This document shows, piece by piece, positions 9,639 through 56,696 of a DNA stretch of 64,000 nucleotides. The DNA lies in assembly GCA_038314665.1 (NCBI GenBank), contig GCA_038314665.1_3677.1; one strand, given 5' to 3'. The stretch's first letter is position 1; the number at the start of each line of letters is the position of its first letter. A program made the translations under genes and the position numbers. Below the pieces are notes generated by a model. The model had not been told where the DNA came from. It did not search any database and saw nothing but the letters and a program-made list of their open reading frames with translations. Origin of the DNA: a phage.

Positions 9639-9656
9639 TTTCTTAACTAAACTATC

Positions 9657-9685
9657 AGGGGCTTTAAAAGGCCCCTTTCTTTTTG
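9657..9685 (+). terminator. rho-independent terminator
   Basis: GGGGC-TTTAAAAG-GCCCC hairpin followed by TTTCTTTTTG. Confidence 0.7.
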
Positions 9686-10292
9686 TCTGTATTTCTCCTA
9701 CCACAAACGGCCCCACCTGGCAAGTGGAATAATTGACTAGCCATCAATCCCACACACTGTACAAACATACATGTAAAATAACTATTGCATAATTTTTCAT
9801 TGTGTGGTAGCAGGGCCATTTTTACCCGTTTTCTCTCTCAAAATTGCACGTAATGCCGCTATTGCACAAAATTTAACCTGATGCATATCTTCAATAGCTT
9901 GTCAACAACTAAAAATCTTTATAAGTCATACACTTACACACTCACAAAAGCGTGTTCTACGTGAAAAATCGAGTATAACTATAGCCGCCAGATCTCAGAA
10001 TTTACGTACGTTCACCATTCTATAGTCTGCTAAGTATTTATTCCAACCATAGAATAATGGAATAGTCAATACCTGCATAAAATAATTATTCGTATAAACT
10101 GCATAACATAAATCAGCTTAGGTGTCAACATTTTTCGTAAACAGCCTGAAATTATCACGGTGAGTTATCATAAACAGAGAAATCTTTAGTCGTCTAATGT
10201 TTACTGTACATTACTATACTTACTGGAATCATTAGATGACTAAGAGAAAGATAAGAAATAATTAACAATACAATTATTTTATATGTAACAAT

Positions 10293-10483
10293 AAGGCAAC
10301 TATGCAAACGAATGGCATGGCGCGACGGAGTCGCGACATAATATAAAAGCAGTAACCATCACCCCCGTGATAGTTTGTCTGCAATCTATTAATCAGATCA
10401 TAGTTGCCTTGTATTTAGTTAATCATGACATAACAAGCAAGGCAACTATAGATCTGCTAATAGTTGCCCTGCTTTTATATTAT
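10293..10483. repeat. nested inverted-repeat / hairpin cluster
   Basis: GGCAACTAT and ATAGTTGCC alternate four times; 15-bp inverted repeat ATAATATAAAAGCAG / CTGCTTTTATATTAT; palindromes CGCGAC..GTCGCG and GTGACTAAAGGTCAC; flanked by 20-bp direct repeats ATGCAAACGAATGGCATGGC (10303) and ATGCAAACGAATGTCATGGC (10609). Confidence 0.6.
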
Positions 10484-10629
10484 GTCATAGAAACACCCGA
10501 AGGGGTGACTAAAGGTCACCTGGCATAGCCAGTGAAAGATTATTAACCTGCTAATTGTCAGCTTATTGGCTGTTAGCTTGTCAATTGTTAACTTGTTAAT
10601 TGTTATCATGCAAACGAATGTCATGGCTT

Positions 10630-10800
10630 ATCATTTTTGTGTAAACAGTCAATCATGTAAATGATAAGTATGTGAACAGTTATCCATGTAAACTATTAGA
10701 TATGTAAACTATCGGTTATGTAAACAGTAAGAGCGTGAACAGTAAAGGGAGTGAATAGTAATAGCGTGAATAGTGACAGCGTAAACAGTCAGGCATGTCA
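10630..10800. repeat. tandem degenerate short repeats (ATGTAAAC / GTGAACAGT / GTGAATAGT units)
   Basis: at least ten units, roughly 11-14 bp period, visible by eye; non-coding. Confidence 0.6.
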
Positions 10801-11363
10801 ATTATGTTTAATGTGCCCAGTATGTCAAAGGTGTCATGTTATGTCACTATTGTGTCAGACAAGTTTTTCTCCTCTTTGTCAAGTGCTGCATGAAAAATTT
10901 ACAATCTGGTATGGTAGCATTTTTGCGGCCCTGTTTACATTCAGTTGTGTATGTATAATCCTTGTTGTGCGGGCGTTTGGACGTCTAGATGGTTGGAAGT
11001 CTGCAGGTCAATATCTAATCTATCGGCTGTTAACTATATCCCACACAAATAGTAAGAAATATAATTGTTATATGCGTAAACAGTAACTCATGTTATCAAT
11101 CCCTGTATGTATCGCCAGTGGTGCGCATAATGGGTATTATGTTAAATTGCCCGTAATGATAACTATTCTCACAATGATAGGTATTCTCATTCAATCCCAC
11201 AAGATAGGTTGCAAATGTTGTGCCACTGTGTGAACGGCCTCACCTATTAATTTGCCACACTGCCCCGATATTTGAGAATTGTTATAAGAATGAGAAGTAT
11301 TCCCATTTCGTCCGCCTGGCAGCACTCCAGTCGCTACCGCTTATGACAGGGCAGAGCTAGACC

Positions 11364-11512
11364 CTCTTCAGATATTTCTGGCTGACTCTTCAGGTCTGTG
11401 TGGGAAAAGCCAATCTCTCCGGCGGCGGGGAGGGGGTCAATTAAAAAATTTATGTGGTGTATGAAGCGCTCTTCAGGTAAGGCATGTATTATGGGATGAA
11501 ACCCTCTTCAGG
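11364..11512. repeat. cluster of CTCTTCAGG motifs
   Basis: copies at 11364, 11386, 11469 and 11504, with further copies at 11894 and 12544; interleaved G-rich GGCGGGGAGGGGGT (11421) and CCCGGCGGGGCAGGGG (11566). Confidence 0.5.
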
Positions 11513-12253
11513 TGATGATATTTGTGGGTGTGATATTTGCTGGAAAGTCAGATATGACGGGACTCCCGGCGGGGCAGGGGTAGTACAGACAGGGAAAATA
11601 TGGGGATGTAGTTGGGGAAATTGATCAGACAGGTGGAGTATAGTATATGTTACAAGTATGTTAAATAGAGAGGTTTAATATCTGTAAGATTTGTGTGTAA
11701 AATCAAAGACTTAAGTGGTGTTGTGGTATTTTCTATAAATAATTCAAGTTTAATAGGGAATATTTGTCAGAAAGGCAGGTTCAGGTTATTTAAAGTGGTA
11801 TTTCAGATGCATGTTTACAGAAGCAGGTAACCCCCCTCCCCCTTCGGCTACCATTCACCTTTTCCTCTGACTGGTACTTAAACACTTATTCAGACTCTTC
11901 AGGTTATCACCCATATATCATATGGCAGTGACTGGTGTCCTCCGGCCCCTCTTTCGTCACCCGTCCGCTTCGCCATGCTAATGCCATAGCCAGTGGTTCG
12001 GTTGTTCACCCTGTTCACTCAGGTGTATCTCCATACCCCTTCAAACCGAAGAGAACAGAAAACCCGAATTACTCGGTAAAAGAAAAGAGAAGAACTTAAT
12101 TTTATCAGGATAGGCAAGAATGTCAAGGCATGACTGCTCACTAAACAAGCAAACAGTCATGTGTGGGAGGTAAGTGATTGTGGTGGTAGGAAATTTAGTT
12201 GAAAGATGTGTTATGGGTGCTCCCAGCACTTTAGCCGGGCAATTAATTGTGTG

Positions 12254-12469
12254 TCAGTCCAGTGGTTCATCCCCTACTTCACTGAAATCGATGTTCATGG
12301 TCTCCTCCCAACCATCAATCTCAGCACCAGAGTAGAGATCTTTAGGACTTACTCCCAAAGCCTCAGCAACAGAGTCCATATTTAACACCTCTGGCAGGTA
12401 TGATTCATCGAATTCAAGGTAAATCAGGCCACGAGTGTTGTCAGCTCCACCAAATATTTCTATCTTCAT
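12254..12469 (-). CDS. hypothetical small acidic protein (71 aa)
   Basis: last ORF of the minus-strand array; acidic C-terminus. Confidence 0.5.
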   Translation of the reverse strand: MKIEIFGGADNTRGLIYLEFDESYLPEVLNMDSVAEALGVSPKDLYSGAEIDGWEETMNIDFSEVGDEPLD

Positions 12470-12590
12470 GAAATCTCCTCTGGAAATGAGAGTGTGAACA
12501 GGGTTTTATACGTCCCAATGCACAGGAATTATGCACGTTTGCCTCTTCAGGCCATGCTTTAGCATGAGGAACCTGTGTGGGCTCGGTGCT

Positions 12591-12896
12591 TCATAGTCTA
12601 CCACCCCTGAACTCTTCGTGCTCAGGCATAATAGAGAACCAGATAACTACGATGTCTTCCCACGTTAGGTCATCAGCCTCAGGATCTACCTGGAGTGAAG
12701 ATGGAGAATCTTCAGAATCGAAGTTTTCCTCTTGCACTGGCTCAGTCAAGGGACATACAGTCACTCCTTTGGATGTCTCTTCAGATGCATGTGTGTTTAT
12801 CATGTTCCACCCGTGAGTATTCCGGCAACAGCCGCTATGGACATAATGATCATCAGGATCACCACAAAAACCTCTGACAATGTTCTCATTGTGCAC
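12591..12896 (-). CDS. hypothetical acidic protein (101 aa)
   Basis: ORF only; start uncertain. Confidence 0.3.
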   Translation of the reverse strand: MHNENIVRGFCGDPDDHYVHSGCCRNTHGWNMINTHASEETSKGVTVCPLTEPVQEENFDSEDSPSSLQVDPEADDLTWEDIVVIWFSIMPEHEEFRGGRL

Positions 12897-13162
12897 TCCA
12901 TATTCTTCAGACTATGTGTGGATACTATCACTGGAGCGGTAATGTGTCAACAGAAACGCCGCGAGGGTTTGGTTAAAATCCGAGCGTATGGTGATTTGGG
13001 TCAAAACGGACGTGCGTTCTCGCTACGCTCGAAATAGAGAGTTGTTTGTAGAAAGCTCTTAAACGCTCTGTAATGAGATTATCTGTCCAAGGTATGCAAT
13101 CGTGCACCAGATAAAGAAAAGGACGCCACAGAGCGTCCTAGGTGTCTTAAATTTGATATTTT

Positions 13163-48616: not shown

Positions 48617-48967
48617 TCAGTAGATGTTTTGTTTAATCTCTATTCCAAACTTCTTGAATGAGTCAGCAGCAAGCATAAATTTACGAGCTGCCGATGGATT
48701 AGAAGTATGCACGAAAATAATCACGTTGTCAATAAGTGGTGGCTTTCCGAATACAAGTTTCTCCTCTAGCGCAGAGAAGCAGTCGTACCCTTCAAACACT
48801 TCACCTAGATCATTGTCAAAATACCACTCAGATACGCGTCTGTAGAGCTTTCTCTTATCATTAAGAAAATCCATAAACTCAGAAGAATTCTTTAGCCACA
48901 GAGCGTCTGGGAGTCCATAATCTGACGGATCTCTAAAATCATCAAGCCACACAATCCACTTCTTCAT
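48617..48967 (-). CDS. hypothetical protein (116 aa)
   Basis: coupled ORF. Confidence 0.45.
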   Translation of the reverse strand: MKKWIVWLDDFRDPSDYGLPDALWLKNSSEFMDFLNDKRKLYRRVSEWYFDNDLGEVFEGYDCFSALEEKLVFGKPPLIDNVIIFVHTSNPSAARKFMLAADSFKKFGIEIKQNIY

Positions 48968-49899
48968 TGCATATAGTCCTCGTTGTGGAAATAGTAGTCC
49001 AGTATCTCACGACGCTCCTGCTCTAATAAGCAATTCCACACATCTTCTGTATAGTTGCTACGAATAAATTTTACCATACCGTAAAACTCTTCGTCAACAC
49101 GTTTAAAGATATCATCATCCCAAATCTTCCAAGCTTTACCCCTCATTACGGCCTTCCGTGCCAGATAGTATGGAGACTTGATCTTCAGCTGCAGATCATA
49201 AGGGTAGTAAGGCTTACGAATCATATACCCTTCACCTCTTGTTTCTGCAGCTAATTCTTTTGCATAGCTGAACGGAATTTCACGCACAGTGTGAGGACGT
49301 TTTGCACCAAGGTATTTGGCAATCCCATCTAAAGCTGCTTCTGGTAGCATTATTCCAGAATCATTATATCTGCAACCTATCAAATATGCGCCATGATCTT
49401 CCTGAACAATATGCGGATCTGAAGGGTGGCAAATTTCAAACATGAATGTCATGTTTTCATTGCCCATAACCTTCTTGATAAGATCTAAATTACCACATTG
49501 CTCCCTGATGGTTTCTTTTGCGAGGTTACAATATGGGGAATCAAGAGACCCGGTTGTTGAGAACAACAGTTCACCTTTATGAGATGATACCACACCGAGG
49601 AATCCGTTCTTTTTCTCTACCGCAGTAACAAGTTTACTGTCCGGTAGGTTGGTGGAGTTTTCTCCTAAGTTGAATACTTTTGTGAAAGGCCATGCCACAA
49701 CATTCCCCTCATTGCCAACAACAATACCTCGGCACTCCAGTAAACGCGGAGACAAATGCCACAGATTGTTGTAGAATACTTTTCTGGCATATTTATAGAT
49801 CTTTAATCCAAGATCTGGATAATACCGACTGGTTACAAGACCTTTGTCTACTAGGTCATCTGCATTAAAATACTTCATCATACGTTCCTCATTTGTCAT
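48964..49899 (-). CDS. RNA ligase, T4 Rnl1-like (311 aa)
   Basis: LLECRGIVV and EKKNGFLGVV resemble T4 RnlA ALECRGIMF and the KEDGSL adenylation motif. Confidence 0.6.
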   Translation of the reverse strand: MTNEERMMKYFNADDLVDKGLVTSRYYPDLGLKIYKYARKVFYNNLWHLSPRLLECRGIVVGNEGNVVAWPFTKVFNLGENSTNLPDSKLVTAVEKKNGFLGVVSSHKGELLFSTTGSLDSPYCNLAKETIREQCGNLDLIKKVMGNENMTFMFEICHPSDPHIVQEDHGAYLIGCRYNDSGIMLPEAALDGIAKYLGAKRPHTVREIPFSYAKELAAETRGEGYMIRKPYYPYDLQLKIKSPYYLARKAVMRGKAWKIWDDDIFKRVDEEFYGMVKFIRSNYTEDVWNCLLEQERREILDYYFHNEDYMQ

Positions 49900-49999
49900 T
49901 TTGTCAGTCTATCTTGCCACACAAATAACCTAGTGTCAACACTTGAAATTAACAAAACAGTTAGGTATACTATCATTAAAATTAAAACGGAGGATTGCT

Positions 50000-50410
50000 A
50001 TGTCTAAAATGCTATATATCGTGCGTGGTCTGCCAGGGTCTGGCAAATCAACACTGGCAAATGCGCTATCTTTAGAAGGCCTGTATCCACATTTTGAGAA
50101 CGACATGTTCTGGTATGACGATGACGGCAATTACAACTGGGATGCAAGTAAAGTAACACTCGCAGCAAAATGGTGCAAAGATAACGTAGAAGATATGATG
50201 CGTATGGGATACGACCGTATCGTGGTAAGTAATACGTTTACAAAAGAAAAACATGTGCAGGAATATGTTGACATGGCAATCAGTCATGGGTATAGTTATA
50301 CCGTGATCGTGGTTGAAAACCGCCACGGTAATAAAAGCATTCATGATGTTCCAGACAAGATTGTGGATCGTATGGAACGCCAGCTTAAAAACTGCATTAA
50401 ACTTAAATGA
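50000..50410 (+). CDS. polynucleotide 5'-kinase domain protein (136 aa)
   Basis: start taken at the ATG with GGAGG RBS; P-loop GLPGSGKST as in the T4 Pnk kinase domain GCPGSGKST. Confidence 0.65.
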   Translation: MSKMLYIVRGLPGSGKSTLANALSLEGLYPHFENDMFWYDDDGNYNWDASKVTLAAKWCKDNVEDMMRMGYDRIVVSNTFTKEKHVQEYVDMAISHGYSYTVIVVENRHGNKSIHDVPDKIVDRMERQLKNCIKLK

Positions 50411-50417
50411 GGAATGT

Positions 50418-50972
50418 ATGAAATACTTTGTAACAAGCGATACGCACTTTCTCCACCAGCGGGTCATGGAGTTTGAGTCATGTCAAAAACACAGATCTCA
50501 GTATGATCACAATCTTGATAGTATGAATGCTGGAATCATCACCGAGTGGAACTCTGTTGTGTCACCTGCAGACACTGTGTTCCACCTGGGAGATATTGCG
50601 TGCACTAATGATAAGAATATCAACAACTTACTTCCAGATATTCTAAATATGTTGAACGGACATATTATTCTTGTTCGTGGCAACCATGACACAAGAACGA
50701 CTGTCAGAATTATGAAAGAGTTCGGTCATGAGGTTGTAGATTATTACGAGCTTCGCCACAACAAGAATTTGATCTGTATGAGCCATTACCAGTTTGCAAA
50801 GTGGAACAGAAAGCCTCACGGATCAGTCCAACTGTTCGGTCATGCTCACGGAACCACACAACAGTTGTTTGGCAGGCAGCTTGATGTCGGTTGGGATGTG
50901 TGGGGGAGACTCTTACCATTAGAAGAGGCATACCGTATTGCAATGAGTTTTGATATTGACAGCAGGGAGTAA
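50418..50972 (+). CDS. calcineurin-like metallophosphoesterase (184 aa)
   Basis: start taken at the ATG after AGGAA; DxH...GD...GNHD metallophosphatase motifs. Confidence 0.6.
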   Translation: MKYFVTSDTHFLHQRVMEFESCQKHRSQYDHNLDSMNAGIITEWNSVVSPADTVFHLGDIACTNDKNINNLLPDILNMLNGHIILVRGNHDTRTTVRIMKEFGHEVVDYYELRHNKNLICMSHYQFAKWNRKPHGSVQLFGHAHGTTQQLFGRQLDVGWDVWGRLLPLEEAYRIAMSFDIDSRE

Positions 50973-51019
50973 TCCCTGCTATTTTAAAGAAAATTGCCAC
51001 ACAAGGAGAATCAGGAGAT

Positions 51020-51370
51020 ATGAAAGATGGGGATAAGCTGCTATATCTTAAAGTCCCCCTTGAAATACTATCTATGTCAAAAGTTTTGAATGACACAACT
51101 GGGGAGGTTGTTGTTCTTGACTTGTATGACAAGATTGTATACTGCTACCTGCACAACTGGTATAAGCTTGGAGGAAATTCACACTTCACACCAAGCACAA
51201 GGAAAATTGCAGCAGATGTTGGGATAAAGAAAACAAAAGCAGCAGCGTGCGTTAAAACTTTAGAATGTGCAGGAGTTGTTGAAACATCCACACAAGGGAG
51301 AGGTAAAAGATGCACATTTTCCAAAGTTTTGCCACCAGAAGAAGTTATTCGAATGTCAACAACTGGTTAG
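51020..51370 (+). CDS. putative DNA-binding protein (116 aa)
   Basis: helix-turn-helix-like STRKIAADVGIKKTKAAACV; lies just upstream of the iteron array. Confidence 0.45.
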   Translation: MKDGDKLLYLKVPLEILSMSKVLNDTTGEVVVLDLYDKIVYCYLHNWYKLGGNSHFTPSTRKIAADVGIKKTKAAACVKTLECAGVVETSTQGRGKRCTFSKVLPPEEVIRMSTTG

Positions 51371-51444
51371 ACCAGTAAAAACTTAAATATCTGTACTATA
51401 AGTATTTGTATGTTTTATGTTCACCATGGAACAGAAACTATTAA

Positions 51445-51526
51445 CTGTCCGTGATACGGACACTACTGCCCGTCACGCGGACACATCTGTCCGTAATACG
51501 GACACTAACTGTCCGTGATACGGACA
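51445..51526. repeat. four tandem 21-bp palindromic iterons (CTGTCCGT-N3-ACGGACAC)
   Basis: units at 51445, 51466, 51487 and 51508, followed by an AT-rich palindromic stretch to about 51660. Confidence 0.7.
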
Positions 51527-52030
51527 CATAAAGAATATAACTAAAATAACTAAATAATAAAAAATAAAAGATCTAGTACTTATGGTACTAAGTACATATA
51601 CTTAACTTATGTAGAATATACTAGATCCTAAGTACCATGTTTTAAATTTATTACTTTCTATAGGTAGTGTCGGCCCTTCATTGGCACTCGCCTACGAGGG
51701 GCGAGATGCCGGGCCTCCATAGTGCACACAATAACAGAAGTGCATACATGCAGGTCTGTTAACATGTGTGGGAGCGAAGCGATAGCGCAGGCCAAAGGCC
51801 GAGCACTAATGTGGACCACCGACGAAAGCTTGCCAGCGCCGTAAGGAGTCGGTTGAGAGCCTCCAGCGCGAGTTTGGATAAAGTTTATGTGTGGAAACGG
51901 ACAATGAGGCCCCTAAATCGCTCCACAGCCATATAAACTATACCAAGTAAGGCAATCGCACCAGTTTGATAGAAAAGCTCGTTACAAAGCGATACAGTGA
52001 GTTTTTCTATAACTTGAAGAGGAGGCAGCT

Positions 52031-52609
52031 ATGAGTCCACGCAAAGATGACCGTGAAAAGATTGCAAAACGTTATCAGAATGAAGAGCAGATGGAGAAAA
52101 CTTTCAAGTGGAAGCCAGGTTTCCAGCGTAATCATTCTAACGCTCGTGATCGTAAGCATCCGGATAAGTGGTTAACACCGCCAAATGATGGCATGCAGGT
52201 TGGTGATGAGAAGGAGCTGTCACCTGGAAAAGATGGCAACTACATTCGCACTAAGGAAGCAGGTCCAAAGGATGACAGCTATCTTGTAGATAAGGTTCTT
52301 GATGGTATTGATGTAGATGTTGACACTGCACGAAACCTTTTTCTTGGTTGGTATCGTACAGGGTTTTTCGACATCAAGGCTATTCGTCGTGTTTGCGATA
52401 TTAAAAAGTCTGCCTATGATGATGACTCTCTACATCGCACTCTGAGACAATACTCAGAGAGATACGGTCATCCAGTTATCACTCTTGACGATATTAACGA
52501 AGTGATGTATCATGCAGAGGTTGTTGCAGGTAGATTCGGTGATGCATATTTCAGTATTCTTTCTGCAAAAGATGAGGTAATGTTAAATAAGATTTACCAT
52601 GAACGCTGA
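52031..52609 (+). CDS. hypothetical protein (192 aa)
   Basis: ORF with GAGGAGG RBS. Confidence 0.55.
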   Translation: MSPRKDDREKIAKRYQNEEQMEKTFKWKPGFQRNHSNARDRKHPDKWLTPPNDGMQVGDEKELSPGKDGNYIRTKEAGPKDDSYLVDKVLDGIDVDVDTARNLFLGWYRTGFFDIKAIRRVCDIKKSAYDDDSLHRTLRQYSERYGHPVITLDDINEVMYHAEVVAGRFGDAYFSILSAKDEVMLNKIYHER

Positions 52610-52619
52610 GGAGTGCTTA

Positions 52620-52808
52620 ATGAACAACCCGGTAGCAAAGAACTGTAATAAGTTCAACAAGTCTGCAATTCACACTGACAGGAAAAAGAGCTGGTCTCCT
52701 GACATTGACGAGGAGCTTGAGAGTTACTTTGAATACCTGGTCACTAATGCAGATGAGGTTGCGATTAAAGAATACGCAGACAGGAAGGATAAGGCCGGAA
52801 TCTGTTGA
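52620..52808 (+). CDS. hypothetical protein (62 aa)
   Basis: start taken at the ATG after GAGGAGTG. Confidence 0.4.
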   Translation: MNNPVAKNCNKFNKSAIHTDRKKSWSPDIDEELESYFEYLVTNADEVAIKEYADRKDKAGIC

Positions 52809-52884
52809 CAAAAATAGTGTTACCTGATAAGATCTGCAATATGATGTGATGCAATTTTAACTTACGAGGTCTACAGGTAATGCT

Positions 52885-53127
52885 ATGTTTAAGGTTAAGC
52901 TCGTTTTTCGTTCCATGAATGAGGATTATTTAGAAGATGAAGGTGAATTTCGTGCACTGGATGATGCAATAGATTTTGCCAACGACTTAGCTTGTATGAA
53001 TACAGGTTATGGGCTATGCTGTTGGGATGGTGGTGTTCAGATCGGTGATAGCAAGATCTTCTACTTCTACCCTGAGCCTGATAACAAACAAATTAAGTAT
53101 GTTTTATTTATTTGTGCTTTACAATGA
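52885..53127 (+). CDS. hypothetical acidic protein (80 aa)
   Basis: ORF with RBS. Confidence 0.5.
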   Translation: MFKVKLVFRSMNEDYLEDEGEFRALDDAIDFANDLACMNTGYGLCCWDGGVQIGDSKIFYFYPEPDNKQIKYVLFICALQ

Positions 53128-53416
53128 GGTTGTTTTCGTGTATCATGATGAATATCCAATTTAAAGATGAATTTGATGGCTTTATCTCCGGATGCTTTGA
53201 AACAGGGTTCGGAGAAGACTGAGTTCCCCTTAGAGGGCTTGATAGTGCACCACACTTAAAATGGTAGGGGCAGCCAGCACATGACGATGTGACCCCAGCC
53301 AACCTGTAACAAGGTCGAGCCGAAGCGCGGGTAATAGGCCTCTGGTAACCCACTTGTTGGGTCTTGCTGGTCCAGGACGCTGGACAAGTCGCAGGGAATA
53401 CCACCCTGCGGCGAAC

Positions 53417-53445
53417 TTGACAATCAGTATTTGCTATGATAAAAT
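53417..53445 (+). promoter_or_regulatory. sigma70-like promoter (TTGACA-N17-TAAAAT) with palindrome TATCACGTGATA downstream
   Basis: upstream of the CDS at 53474. Confidence 0.55.
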
Positions 53446-53473
53446 CCACCTATCACGTGATAATGGAGGAAAC

Positions 53474-53812
53474 ATGGCGGATACAACTAAAAAGCGTCGC
53501 CGTAGAGGCAGACCTCTGAAAGAGGAGTCCAACGCCATTCAGCTAGAGAAGAACATCCTTGATATGAAGGAATCTTTTATAGCGATGGTTCCAGAAGCTC
53601 ACAAAGTTTTAAGAGAGCTGATGTTGGACCCGAAAACCAAACAAAATATTCGTCAAAGCATTGCAGAGTATGTTCTTGATAAGGCAGACCGAATGCAGGA
53701 AGAATATGATGAGATGTTTGGTGAAGAGGAAGAGGTGGTAGTAGAAGAGGCTGAAAAACCAGCACCTTTTATGCCATTTACCACAGAAATACAGCCTGTT
53801 AGCAATAGCTAA
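53474..53812 (+). CDS. hypothetical protein with N-terminal basic patch KKRRRRGRP (112 aa)
   Basis: ATG after GGAGGAAAC; ORF track extends upstream to 53354. Confidence 0.5.
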   Translation: MADTTKKRRRRGRPLKEESNAIQLEKNILDMKESFIAMVPEAHKVLRELMLDPKTKQNIRQSIAEYVLDKADRMQEEYDEMFGEEEEVVVEEAEKPAPFMPFTTEIQPVSNS

Positions 53813-53821
53813 AATATTTTC

Positions 53822-53850
53822 TTGACAAACTTTGCTTAACAGTGTAATAT
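53822..53850 (+). promoter_or_regulatory. sigma70-like promoter (TTGACA-N17-TAATAT) for the tRNA cluster
   Basis: about 60 nt upstream of the first tRNA. Confidence 0.6.
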
Positions 53851-53908
53851 TGTAAACATGGTCTCCCACCTTTTCTGGCGGCTAAGGTGTAAAAGAAAGC
53901 CACCCAGT

Positions 53909-53983
53909 GCCCTGTTAGCTTAGTGGATAAAGCAGCGGCCTTCTAAGCCGTTGACACTGGTTCGAGTCCAGTACGGGGTGCCA
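53909..53983 (+). tRNA. tRNA-Arg (anticodon TCT)
   Basis: manual cloverleaf: acceptor GCCCTGT/ACGGGGT, anticodon loop CTTCTAA, T-loop TTCGAGT, encoded CCA. Confidence 0.75.
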
Positions 53984-54113
53984 AGTTCTTTTTAATGTAG
54001 CTTACTTTAGCAGAGTAAATCTTCGGCAAGTGGCGGTAACCACTTTACCGATACCTCATAGTTAGTGGTGAGAACACTAGCTATTTTAAAAAGAATTTAA
54101 ATATTAGTATTTA

Positions 54114-54201
54114 GGTGAGTTAATTCCGTAGGGGTAGCGGGGCAGACTGTAAATCTGTTATCATTGCGATTCGGGTGGTTCGACTCCATCACTCACCACC
54201 A
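54114..54201 (+). tRNA. tRNA-Tyr (anticodon GTA)
   Basis: acceptor GGTGAGT/ACTCACC, anticodon loop CTGTAAA, long variable arm, CCA. Confidence 0.8.
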
Positions 54202-54315
54202 AATTTATATTTTTAAATGCATAAATCATACAGATAATGGCATTGATATTTATCGTCGTTTATACTAGTCACTAACTGCTCGAAAATCAGTGTCATTATC
54301 AGTATAATTTATAAA

Positions 54316-54406
54316 GGAGGGTAGGGAGCAATGGTGCTCAAGCGGTCTTGAAAACCGTCCCATTGAGGATGACTCGATGATGGTTCGATTCCATTACTCT
54401 CCGCCA
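54316..54406 (+). tRNA. tRNA-Ser (anticodon TGA)
   Basis: acceptor GGAGGGT/ACTCTCC, anticodon loop CTTGAAA, long variable arm, CCA. Confidence 0.75.
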
Positions 54407-54504
54407 CATTGTTGACCTTGTAATTAAGCGAAAGCCGGAAGCAGAACCGGATTATCAAATGTTACAGTCGTCATCGCCGACTAGCAACATGGTCAACATA
54501 CTGA

Positions 54505-54603
54505 GCTAGGTAAGCCCTTTGGCAAGGGCGAGGATTTTTAATCCTGAAAATAGACGAGGTAGTCGTTGAATACATAGGTGGTTCGATTCCACCGCCTAGC
54601 ACC
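54505..54603 (+). tRNA. atypical tRNA-like gene (99 nt), anticodon possibly TTT
   Basis: acceptor GCTAGGT/GCCTAGC and T-arm GGTGG-TTCGATT-CCACC are clear; loop TTTTTAA on a short stem; about 30 nt between anticodon arm and T-arm. Confidence 0.4.
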
Positions 54604-54608
54604 TTTTT

Positions 54609-54684
54609 GCTGATGTAGCACAATTGGCAGTGCAATTGATTTGTAATCAATAGGTTGCAGGTTCAAGTCCTGCCATCAGCACCA
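54609..54684 (+). tRNA. tRNA-Thr (anticodon TGT)
   Basis: acceptor GCTGATG/CATCAGC, anticodon loop TTTGTAA, T-loop TTCAAGT, CCA. Confidence 0.8.
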
Positions 54685-54685
54685 A

Positions 54686-54760
54686 GGCCCTGTAGCTGGA
54701 AGGTTCAAGCAAGCGACTCATAATCGCCAGACGGTGGTTCAATTCCACCCAGGGCCACCA
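54686..54760 (+). tRNA. tRNA-Met (anticodon CAT; elongator Met or Ile2 type)
   Basis: acceptor GGCCCTG/CAGGGCC, anticodon loop CTCATAA, CCA. Confidence 0.7.
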
Positions 54761-54771
54761 AATGGTAAATA

Positions 54772-54848
54772 CTCCGCGTAGCTCAGCTTGGTAGAGCGCC
54801 TGATTTGGGATCAGGAGGTCGAGTGTTCGAATCACTCCGTGGAGACCA
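54772..54848 (+). tRNA. tRNA-Pro (anticodon TGG)
   Basis: acceptor CTCCGCG/CGTGGAG with C1-G72, anticodon loop TTTGGGA, T-loop TTCGAAT, CCA. Confidence 0.8.
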
Positions 54849-55952: not shown

Positions 55953-56377
55953 TGTCTAAGATTTACGGACCGTGTTCTGAAAAGCAGAAGATGATCCTAG
56001 AAAACGATGCAGATATTTTGGTAATCGGAGGTGCCGCAGGGTCTGGCAAGTCGTTCCTCTTGCAGTTGATGCCACTTAAAATTATTGATGACCCCCACAG
56101 CTCTGTGGTTATGTTCCGAAGAACAACCCCACAGTTGGAAGGTGAGGGTGGACTATGGCCTAAAGCAGTAGCTATTTATAGTGATCTGCCTGAAAACATT
56201 AAGCCAAAGTTCAGAGAGAAGGATCATAAGTTCATTTTTCCACGGTTTGATCCGAACACTGGTAAGTGGGATAGAAGCAAAAAGGGGGCTGTTGTAAAAT
56301 ACTGCCACATGGAGTATGTACAAGATAAGCTTAACCACCAGGGGCTTGAGTACACCATGGTTTGCTTCGATGAGGGT
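55952..56377 (+). CDS. terL: terminase large subunit, exon 1 (ATPase N-terminal part)
   Basis: Walker A GGAAGSGKS and Walker B MVCFDE; ORF ends at the UAA that begins the intron. Confidence 0.8.
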
Positions 56378-56696
56378 TAATTTGTAGCTCTCGTAAAACC
56401 TCCCTAATTGCGGGGAAATCTTTATTATTGACACCACCAACCTGTTATGGTAACATAATAGAGGCTTCGAAGAGAGATCGAAGGTATGGTAACAGTGTGT
56501 TAATTTAGATAATCCGCAGCGAAGCATCCGATAGGATGAACGTTCAACGACTAGTCGAAAGACGTAGAATCAAGCGATTCGAAACGGGAGGGTAAGCGGT
56601 TGTTGTCGCTTATAAGATATAGTCTGGTCTGCATGGAGACATGCAGCTGCCTGAAAATGGCGGGGCAAGACTAGCGACCTTGCCCGAACATAAACG
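56378..56696 (+). other. group I self-splicing intron (IA-like, no ORF) in the terminase large-subunit gene
   Basis: P-like AATTGCGGGGAAA 56406-56418, Q-like AATCCGCAGC 56511-56520, R-like GTTCAACGACTAGTCGAAAG 56542-56561, S-like AAGATATAGTCTGG 56614-56627; guide GCTCTC 56387-56392; ends in G. Confidence 0.8.

Follow-up and report, generated by a model that had tools for sequence, protein, structure and literature searches.

The window analysed here, a stretch of 64,000 nucleotides (nt) of phage DNA (NCBI GenBank assembly GCA_038314665.1, contig GCA_038314665.1_3677.1; one strand, 5' to 3'), carries a GC-rich intergenic segment between the gene of a small winged-helix protein and that of a hypothetical protein named gp073 in phage rV5, and this segment, at about 51658 to 52026, is the subject of the present report. 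It is a conserved, structured, non-coding element that belongs to no known RNA family. We tentatively read it as a functional, cis-acting structured RNA of the + strand, of an undescribed family, at the edge of a module similar to ori-lambda.

Judged from sequence similarity, the window is that of an rV5-like E. coli phage of the genus Vequintavirus: the 801 bases around the element are 96-99% identical to more than 100 Vequintavirus (rV5-like) E. coli phages, with phiWec193/196 and LL12 as the best matches, and the GC-rich part alone matched the same 119 records at 91-99% and no others in the phage collection. The gene order on the + strand is that of LL12, in which a PNK-like ATPase and a phosphoesterase are followed by a 116-amino-acid (aa) "transcriptional regulator / replication initiation protein", a gap of 660 base pairs (bp), the 192-aa hypothetical protein that is gp073 in rV5, small hypothetical proteins, a tRNA cluster, spanins, an intron-containing large terminase, portal and protease. 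The gene of gp073 is the first in the + strand run toward the tRNAs, spanins, terminase and portal. The features of the locus are as follows.

51020-51370, + strand: winged-helix protein, 116 aa, annotated "replication initiation protein" or "putative transcriptional regulator" (Pfam, PHROG)
51444-51527, no strand assigned: four 21-bp iterons in tandem, all of them inverted repeats of the form TGTCCGT-nnn-ACGGACA (4.0 copies of period 21 by Tandem Repeats Finder)
51535-51657, no strand assigned: AT-rich stretch with nested dyad symmetry and two GATC sites (GC 0.32-0.35)
51672-51715, + strand: hairpin H1, with a GGCCC/GGGCC base helix, a 6-nt 5' bulge, an upper stem of 10-12 bp and a one-base bulge, A51706 (folding and comparison)
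51725-51770, + strand: hairpin H3, of variable length, with a CACACA ... UGUGUG outer helix and a UAACAGA/UCUGUUA inner helix (z = -3.29)
51771-51812, + strand: middle segment with small hairpins GCGAAGC and GGCC-AAA-GGCC and the conserved junction AAUGUGG (86% identical to the divergent phage L028; predicted structure)
51813-51875, + strand: core hairpin H2, with a 6-bp stem (51818-23/51848-53), a CC/GG apical stem, a GNRA loop (51841-44) and the 3' tail CGCGCGAGYU (comparison)
51876-51954, + strand: variable linker, including the motif CCCCUAAAUCGC that is also found in plasmids (65% identical to L028)
51955-52015, + strand: highly conserved 3' segment with a potential long AU-rich hairpin (95% identity to L028, whose whole homologous stretch has 84%)
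52019-52609, + strand: Shine-Dalgarno sequence GAGGAGG and gp073 (192 aa, hypothetical; open reading frame, ORF, 52031-52609; PHROG 12226, of unknown function)

Folding of the GC-rich segment

The GC content is 0.46-0.545 in 200-nt windows across 51600-51999 against 0.32-0.42 on both sides, and the longest overlapping ORFs encode 56 aa (51766-51936, + strand), 53 aa (51658-51819, - strand) and 40 aa, which bears out the initial annotation of a GC-rich segment with no ORF of 60 aa or more. The structured part is slightly longer than the 51661-52000 proposed there: it starts at about 51658 and reaches the ribosome-binding site at about 52026. The two complementary strings quoted in that annotation, GGCCCTTCATTGGCACTCGCC (51672-51692) and GGGGCGAGATGCCGGGCC (51698-51715), pair with each other as the arms of one hairpin, H1. 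Folded on its own, H1 reaches -28.1 kcal/mol and accounts for 92% of its ensemble; compared with 200 dinucleotide shuffles, its z is -4.45. For the whole 376-nt stretch the + strand gives z = -3.63, with none of 100 shuffles as good, and the - strand gives a less clear z = -2.52. A consensus fold over the whole length, in which a long-range helix closes the structure and another sequesters the Shine-Dalgarno sequence, was considered and rejected; it shifts with the set of sequences used and is partly broken in L028.

Among 26 phage sequences all helix pairs of H1 and four of the six stem pairs of H2 are invariant. In L028, a Vequintavirus-like phage from IMG/VR and the most divergent sequence, H1 and H2 are 97% and 91% identical to the window. 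The apical loop of H2 is GUAA or GGAA, both of which are GNRA loops, and its 15-nt 5' internal loop, GAAAGCUUGCCAGCG, is invariant in phages and plasmids alike. This internal loop could pair with the tail CGCGCGAGYU as a pseudoknot, a model proposal in which the sole variation is a one-sided G-U/G-C exchange. H3 shows one A-U to C-G double change in L028, and in rV5, Murica and C2 an 18-nt deletion between the direct repeats GTGCAcACA and GTGCAtACA leaves a shorter H3 hairpin. The linker is variable at 34 of 80 columns within Vequintavirus, more than the neighbouring genes, and its predicted helix is broken in L028.

The fold of the highly conserved 3' segment is unexceptional (z = -1.22), and the segment is possibly a promoter or operator of gp073, or an RNA hairpin. 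It includes at 51977-51984 the string GCUCGUUA, which matches the boxA antitermination motif GCUCUUUA in seven of eight positions; about 0.14 such matches are expected by chance in the region (an estimate), and the match may be a chance one.

Coding capacity and known RNA families

That the region encodes small proteins (rV5 ORF78 of 56 aa, or ORFs of 31-33 aa) is very improbable. The ORF at 51766-51936 is annotated in rV5, HdK5, PMBT16 and JohannBauhin and is intact in 24 of 27 sequences, but it is broken in the remaining three, namely L028, where a premature stop occurs, and two other phages; its variable sites are distributed 13:17:11 over the codon positions, with no excess at the third, and it starts with GTG and lacks a clear ribosome-binding site. 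Moreover, its extent does not match the conserved blocks of H1 and H2, and compensatory changes such as those described below would make no sense in a coding sequence. The comparison thus indicates that the segment is non-coding.

A search of the whole window with Rfam 15 (4227 models) at the gathering threshold, the check suggested by the initial annotation, found tRNAs and a group I intron elsewhere and no family in the element. At permissive E-values the best match was rli43, with 27 bits against a threshold of 100 and mostly in the AT-rich part, and the rest was snoRNA and miRNA noise; the plasmid version of the element gave nothing at E <= 1. ARAGORN predicted no tRNA or tmRNA in the element, its genes lying at 53909-54848 only.

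Two known classes of non-coding RNA were considered specifically. A type III antitoxin of the pseudo-ToxI kind was rejected: Tandem Repeats Finder places repeats in the iterons and the AT-rich part and none in 51658-52026, the neighbouring genes encode the winged-helix protein, the phosphoesterase and unknowns, with no endoribonuclease toxin, and no antitoxin family of Rfam matches. An RNA I/RNA II pair of the ColE1 type was likewise rejected, with no RNAI match in Rfam, no promoter predicted where one would be needed, and iterons and a Rep-like protein instead.

Conservation between phages and plasmids

A sensitive blastn search covered all complete E. coli genomes (5426 genomes) and PLSDB. 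The segment has zero copies on the E. coli chromosomes, and an origin from the host chromosome was rejected on this ground. Short matches of 82-85% identity (about 83%) occur, always in unannotated DNA, on a few E. coli plasmids that are circular, non-mobilizable and 13.2-13.7 kb long; one 39.6-kb plasmid carries three matching places, and the 13-kb plasmid type is also represented by two metagenome contigs, 13.9 and 15.5 kb in length. The DNA shared by phage and plasmid forms two blocks, corresponding to window positions 51660-51718 and 51808-51870. The junction AAUGUGGACC of the middle segment is also present in every plasmid copy, and a block of about 105 nt that includes H2 is identical in all six of them. 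The plasmid arrays are themselves modular, as cassettes of two or three small hairpins are gained and lost between TGTGTG junctions in otherwise near-identical plasmids. The element is modular, with H1 and H2 as core hairpins and variable small hairpins between and after them.

The differences between phage and plasmid preserve the pairing. In plasmid NZ_CP020521 two G-C pairs of H1 have become U-A, and all 12 pairs are paired in the six sequences compared. Three of the six H2 stem pairs are changed on both sides in the plasmids (A-U to G-C, C-G to U-A and A-U to C-G), and phages Aya and L028 show G-U intermediates of H2 stem pairs. For the H2 stem, 96% of alignment cells are paired, against 27-41% when the partners are slid by 1-3 columns; for H1 and H2 together the figures are 96-100% against 27-67% in the slid-partner controls. 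Because all five double changes are compensatory and none is disruptive, with zero broken pairs, the alignment indicates that selection has kept H1 and H2 folded in both lineages.

The same changes bear on the possibility that the segment is palindrome-rich, selfish or recombination-prone filler without function, spread among E. coli elements by recombination. The turnover of cassettes between TGTGTG junctions, the 18-nt deletion of rV5 between direct repeats and the excess variability of the linker would fit such filler, but the invariance of H1 and of most H2 stem pairs across the 26 phages and the five compensatory changes between the lineages do not, and the element is present as a single copy per replicon and absent from E. 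coli chromosomes, unlike a dispersed repeat. We regard filler as improbable. A dispersed palindromic repeat of the REP/BIME kind in particular was rejected, given zero chromosomal places in the 5426 genomes and one copy per replicon.

A covariance model of H2 detected a single copy per sequence, in the window as in every plasmid or contig, and no copy in loci of Mydovirus or Seunavirus, other genera of Vequintavirinae in which the gene order differs. Scans of IMG/VR, metagenomes and GTDB genomes for exact motifs returned only members of the Vequintavirus or plasmid type and chance matches in coding sequence (Collinsella and others).

The upstream module and a possible origin of replication

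The initial annotation made no mention of what lies directly upstream of the element. The 116-aa protein matches Pfam DUF6945 (E = 1e-6) and HTH_36 (E = 1.8e-5) just at threshold and PHROG 12838, "replication initiation protein" (E = 3e-79); it has no C-terminal recruitment domain. A sigma-70-like promoter precedes its gene at 50956-50985, in the same place as promoter P76 annotated in rV5. The iterons that follow, which this protein probably binds, differ in copy number among relatives through indels of 21 or 42 bp, and repeats are annotated here in phages isim, naswa and Alma. Conservation within the intergenic region is highest in the AT-rich stretch: over 23 phages it has 2-5 variable columns per 50 nt, compared with about 8 in the genes on either side. 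At the level of sequence, this module has the features of an iteron origin, namely tandem dyad iterons with an adjacent AT-rich region, and is the best origin candidate in the genome.

The layout invites comparison with ori-lambda, in which iterons bound by the O protein, an AT-rich region and a palindrome are found together. The module resembles it in having four palindromic iterons at a spacing of about 20 bp, an AT-rich stretch with dyad symmetry and an adjacent small gene of the HTH_36 winged-helix type, and the 302-aa Rep of the plasmids weakly matches PHROG "replication initiation O-like" (E = 5e-4). It differs in that the phage protein, with 116 aa, is about the size of a DNA-binding domain, and in that the iterons lie outside the gene. 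Ori-lambda is not known to have a GC-rich hairpin array of 200-370 nt.

The presence of this module directly upstream makes a role as origin-associated DNA a serious alternative and the main rival of the RNA reading, although we consider it unlikely on balance. According to it, the iterons would be bound, the AT-rich stretch would open, and the hairpins would form in single-stranded DNA as a signal for priming or primosome assembly, or as a boundary of unwinding. In its favour, the order iterons, AT-rich stretch, hairpin array is found in the window, in L028 and in the plasmids with their O-like Rep. In L028 the homology to the window starts at the 5' edge of the element (window 51669), and what lies 5' of it (L028 1972-2700, - strand, compared with window 51020-51668) is an unrelated winged-helix protein with iterons and an AT-rich stretch of its own. 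Repeats, AT-rich DNA and a triple-hairpin module follow one another in a similar way on the - strand at about 10.5-11.1 kb, where the window has a second non-coding region. The plasmids have first iterons, then G-rich and AT-rich repeats, the hairpin array, strong sigma-70 promoters, small ORFs and Rep, so that the element stands in an origin-like region, 5' of the operon promoters. Nor is it tied to gp073: the plasmids showed no homologue of this protein, and in a metagenomic phage contig the gene of a 50%-identical homologue has an upstream gap of 60 nt without the element. From the contexts in plasmids and L028 and from this element-free homologue we conclude that the element travels with iteron and AT-rich modules rather than with gp073. 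Many loops of 3 nt also suit this rival, as does the heptamer GCGAAGC, which forms an unusually stable DNA mini-hairpin.

Single-strand initiation (ssi) signals offer a parallel by description, as opposed to sequence. They are orientation-specific, non-coding hairpin segments a few hundred bp from initiator-binding repeats, such as the G4-type G site about 400 bp from oriR of R1 (R1/R100) and ssiA and ssiB of RSF1010. The position and hairpin richness of the element are similar, but it has GNRA and UUCG loops and a G-U bias, and its array is longer and modular. The loops and the excess of G-U cells favour RNA on one strand over origin DNA, and a 15-nt internal loop that does not vary and may take part in a pseudoknot is likewise more in keeping with RNA. 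In addition, the replication role of the iteron module is read from its sequence, and the rV5 genome paper could not place an origin by skew (PMC3606486).

Strand, transcription and proposed function

Several features point to the + strand and to RNA. The GNRA loop of H2 is kept, and the C(UUCG)G loops of the plasmid modules have the same orientation; the element is co-oriented with the downstream genes in phage and plasmid; and when substitutions are mapped on the minimum free energy structure predicted for the sequence of the window alone, G-U cells outnumber A-C cells by 100 to 46 on the + strand, whereas on the - strand the ratio is 37 to 78. RNA of the + strand is the more likely nature of the element by these signs, though not established.

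Transcription is plausible by read-through, since the promoter at 50956-50985 lies upstream and predictions for the + strand gave no terminator-like site between it and gp073, or anywhere else in 50900-54000. By the same prediction the element was rejected as an intrinsic terminator, a GC-rich stem with a run of U behind it. In the mechanism that we propose, a transcript would start at this promoter, cross the winged-helix gene, the iterons and the AT-rich stretch, and continue through the element into gp073 and then the tRNA, lysis and packaging genes, and the element would act on this transcript in cis. The invariant loop of H2 would dock a factor of E. coli or of the phage, or make a tertiary contact, and where the ori-lambda-like module gives way to the downstream operon, this contact would control how the transcript is processed, how stable it is or whether elongation continues. 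Conserved intergenic hairpins that act in cis through host factors are known from the RNase III sites of T7, put of HK022 and boxA/boxB of lambda nut, which are likened here by description; the interrupted helix of about 17 bp in H1 and the boxA-like string of the 3' segment are the points of resemblance. A transcribed RNA also has a precedent in PhiTE, a phage described as rV5-like, which expresses a functional non-coding RNA (PMC3475682).

A number of observations weigh against the element being such an RNA. The five double changes all fall on one deep branch, that between phage and plasmid, and within Vequintavirus alone the covariation measures are no better than those of shuffles, because the helices are nearly invariant. 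The independent contexts are few, effectively two. H2 alone is thermodynamically unstable (z = +1.27), and the whole-length fold is not conserved in L028, where 12 of 103 predicted pairs are broken. The asymmetry between G-U and A-C vanishes when counted per pair (23 against 20), and many loops of the plasmid modules have 3 nt, which suits DNA hairpins too. No promoter is predicted directly 5' of the element and no terminator either, and a repeated phage promoter motif was looked for in this place without success. In the plasmids the strong promoters lie 3' of the element, so that a leader role there would need an unseen promoter upstream. The literature was searched for a transcriptome of an rV5-like phage, and none was found.

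The suggestion of the initial annotation, a non-coding RNA or a long structured leader, fares differently in its parts. The non-coding nature of the segment, hairpins kept by compensatory changes and RNA-like features on the + strand speak for it, even though no Rfam family was found. A leader of the downstream gene is weakened by the plasmid promoters 3' of the element and by the gp073 homologue that lacks it, and a riboswitch or cis-acting leader of gp073 was rejected, as the element is not consistently in the 5' untranslated region of gp073 across relatives. For a discrete RNA, no promoter or terminator that would delimit one was predicted.

The phage-like plasmids and a second non-coding region

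The plasmid family (L026, which is NZ_CP020521.1, together with L025, L031, L036, L056 and L057) has about 13 kb with about 2.9 kb of non-coding DNA. Its proteins include a major capsid protein, a Dit-like tail protein, tail completion and tape-measure proteins and the 302-aa Rep, whose PHROG matches to replication initiation are weak. None of 50,697 phage records contains a relative of the capsid protein, and no protein similarity was detected between the plasmids and this part of the phage; on these grounds the plasmids were rejected as fragments of an rV5-like phage.

A sharing of non-coding DNA across replicons that have no proteins in common could also mean that the element is a trans-acting RNA, a decoy or regulator such as an anti-defence mimic of an RNA of a resident E. 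coli element, acquired from or shared with the 13-kb plasmids. In PhiTE, pseudo-ToxI is a mimic of an antitoxin RNA carried by a plasmid, and recombination between the phage and plasmid copies is possible (PMC3475682). Of the 121 matches that a non-coding and rep stretch of one plasmid (L024 1-3200) finds among the 50,697 phage records, 120 are Vequintavirus, and modules are exchanged as cassettes. The parallel with pseudo-ToxI extends to a non-coding locus in a phage described as rV5-like, with sequence kinship to an RNA of a host plasmid and open to alteration by repeat expansion or recombination, but pseudo-ToxI consists of tandem 36-nt repeats processed by ToxN, while the present element is repeat-free, much larger and has no toxin partner identified (PMC3475682). 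With no discrete transcription unit, promoter or terminator predicted, no tandem repeats like those of type III antitoxins and no defence gene identified beside the plasmid copy, a trans-acting role seems rather improbable to us.

We give only a slim chance to a further reading, in which H1/H2 and the other shared structured motifs form a recognition module by which one replicon exploits the machinery of the other. For example, the 13-kb plasmid could be a satellite with a copy of the RNA or DNA signal that the phage has near its origin, by which it would be replicated or expressed upon infection by an rV5-like phage.

The second non-coding region of the window spans 9640-13160, 3.5 kb with no ORF longer than 111 aa on either strand, and no Rfam family was found in it. 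It is probably the "non-coding" box shown on the map in the rV5 genome paper and undiscussed there (PMC3606486). Read on the - strand, it has first many short repeats of the TGTTTAC/TGTTCAC type (family D1, 4 copies), then repeats like TTAACAAT/TTGACAAT, next a 51-nt triple-hairpin module (10539-10489) that ends in CCC-UUCG-GGG, and then inverted GGCAACTAT repeats. The triple-hairpin module is 88% identical to L026 10884-10934, antisense inside the Rep-like gene of the 13.7-kb plasmid, with the differences confined to the loops. The plasmid arrays are built of similar three-hairpin cassettes with other stem sequences.

Neighbouring genes

Homologues of gp073 were found in Vequintavirus only, apart from the 50%-identical protein mentioned above, and searches of Pfam and of PDB sequences gave no match. 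Neither gp073 nor the winged-helix protein has relatives outside the genus in the phage collection, and a search of IMG/VR for related loci by way of the flanking proteins found nothing.

Just upstream of the locus, at 48964-50972, an RNA ligase, the PNK-like ATPase and a metallophosphoesterase surround a divergent promoter region; they resemble an RNA-repair gene set and stand near the tRNA cluster. Downstream, a second GC-rich gap (GC 0.55) without annotated genes or an Rfam match lies 5' of this cluster at 53222-53474 and contains a near-consensus sigma-70 promoter at 53417-53445. Within the cluster (53909-54848) ARAGORN reports a 99-nt "tRNA-???" with the four-base anticodon string "atcc" (54505-54603), and the tRNA at 54114-54198 is called by Rfam and not by ARAGORN; LL12 annotates a tRNA-Tyr beside tRNA-Arg, for which there is no call in the window. 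The group I intron (Rfam RF00028, 84 bits) is located at 56368-56646 on the + strand within the large terminase gene, as annotated in LL12.

Regarding the records compared, 18 labelled "Campylobacter phage", at least one of them marked UNVERIFIED and several unannotated, are 94-99% identical in this region to E. coli rV5-like phages, and their host label is doubtful. Several of the phages compared, for example JohannBauhin, are included in the BASEL collection (PMC8594841).

Implications

The rV5-like phages are widely used as models and as candidates for therapy, and the element offers a concrete, mutable target beside the best origin candidate in their genome. If it is an RNA, it represents a new structured family whose invariant asymmetric loop probably binds a conserved partner; if it is a signal in single-stranded DNA, it marks a site of replication priming. 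Its presence in otherwise unrelated 13-kb plasmids indicates that lytic phages and resident elements exchange such non-coding modules, and provides a natural comparative system. Should the element serve as a recognition module between these replicons, it would constitute a new interface between helper and parasite, formed by structured nucleic acid and not by shared proteins.

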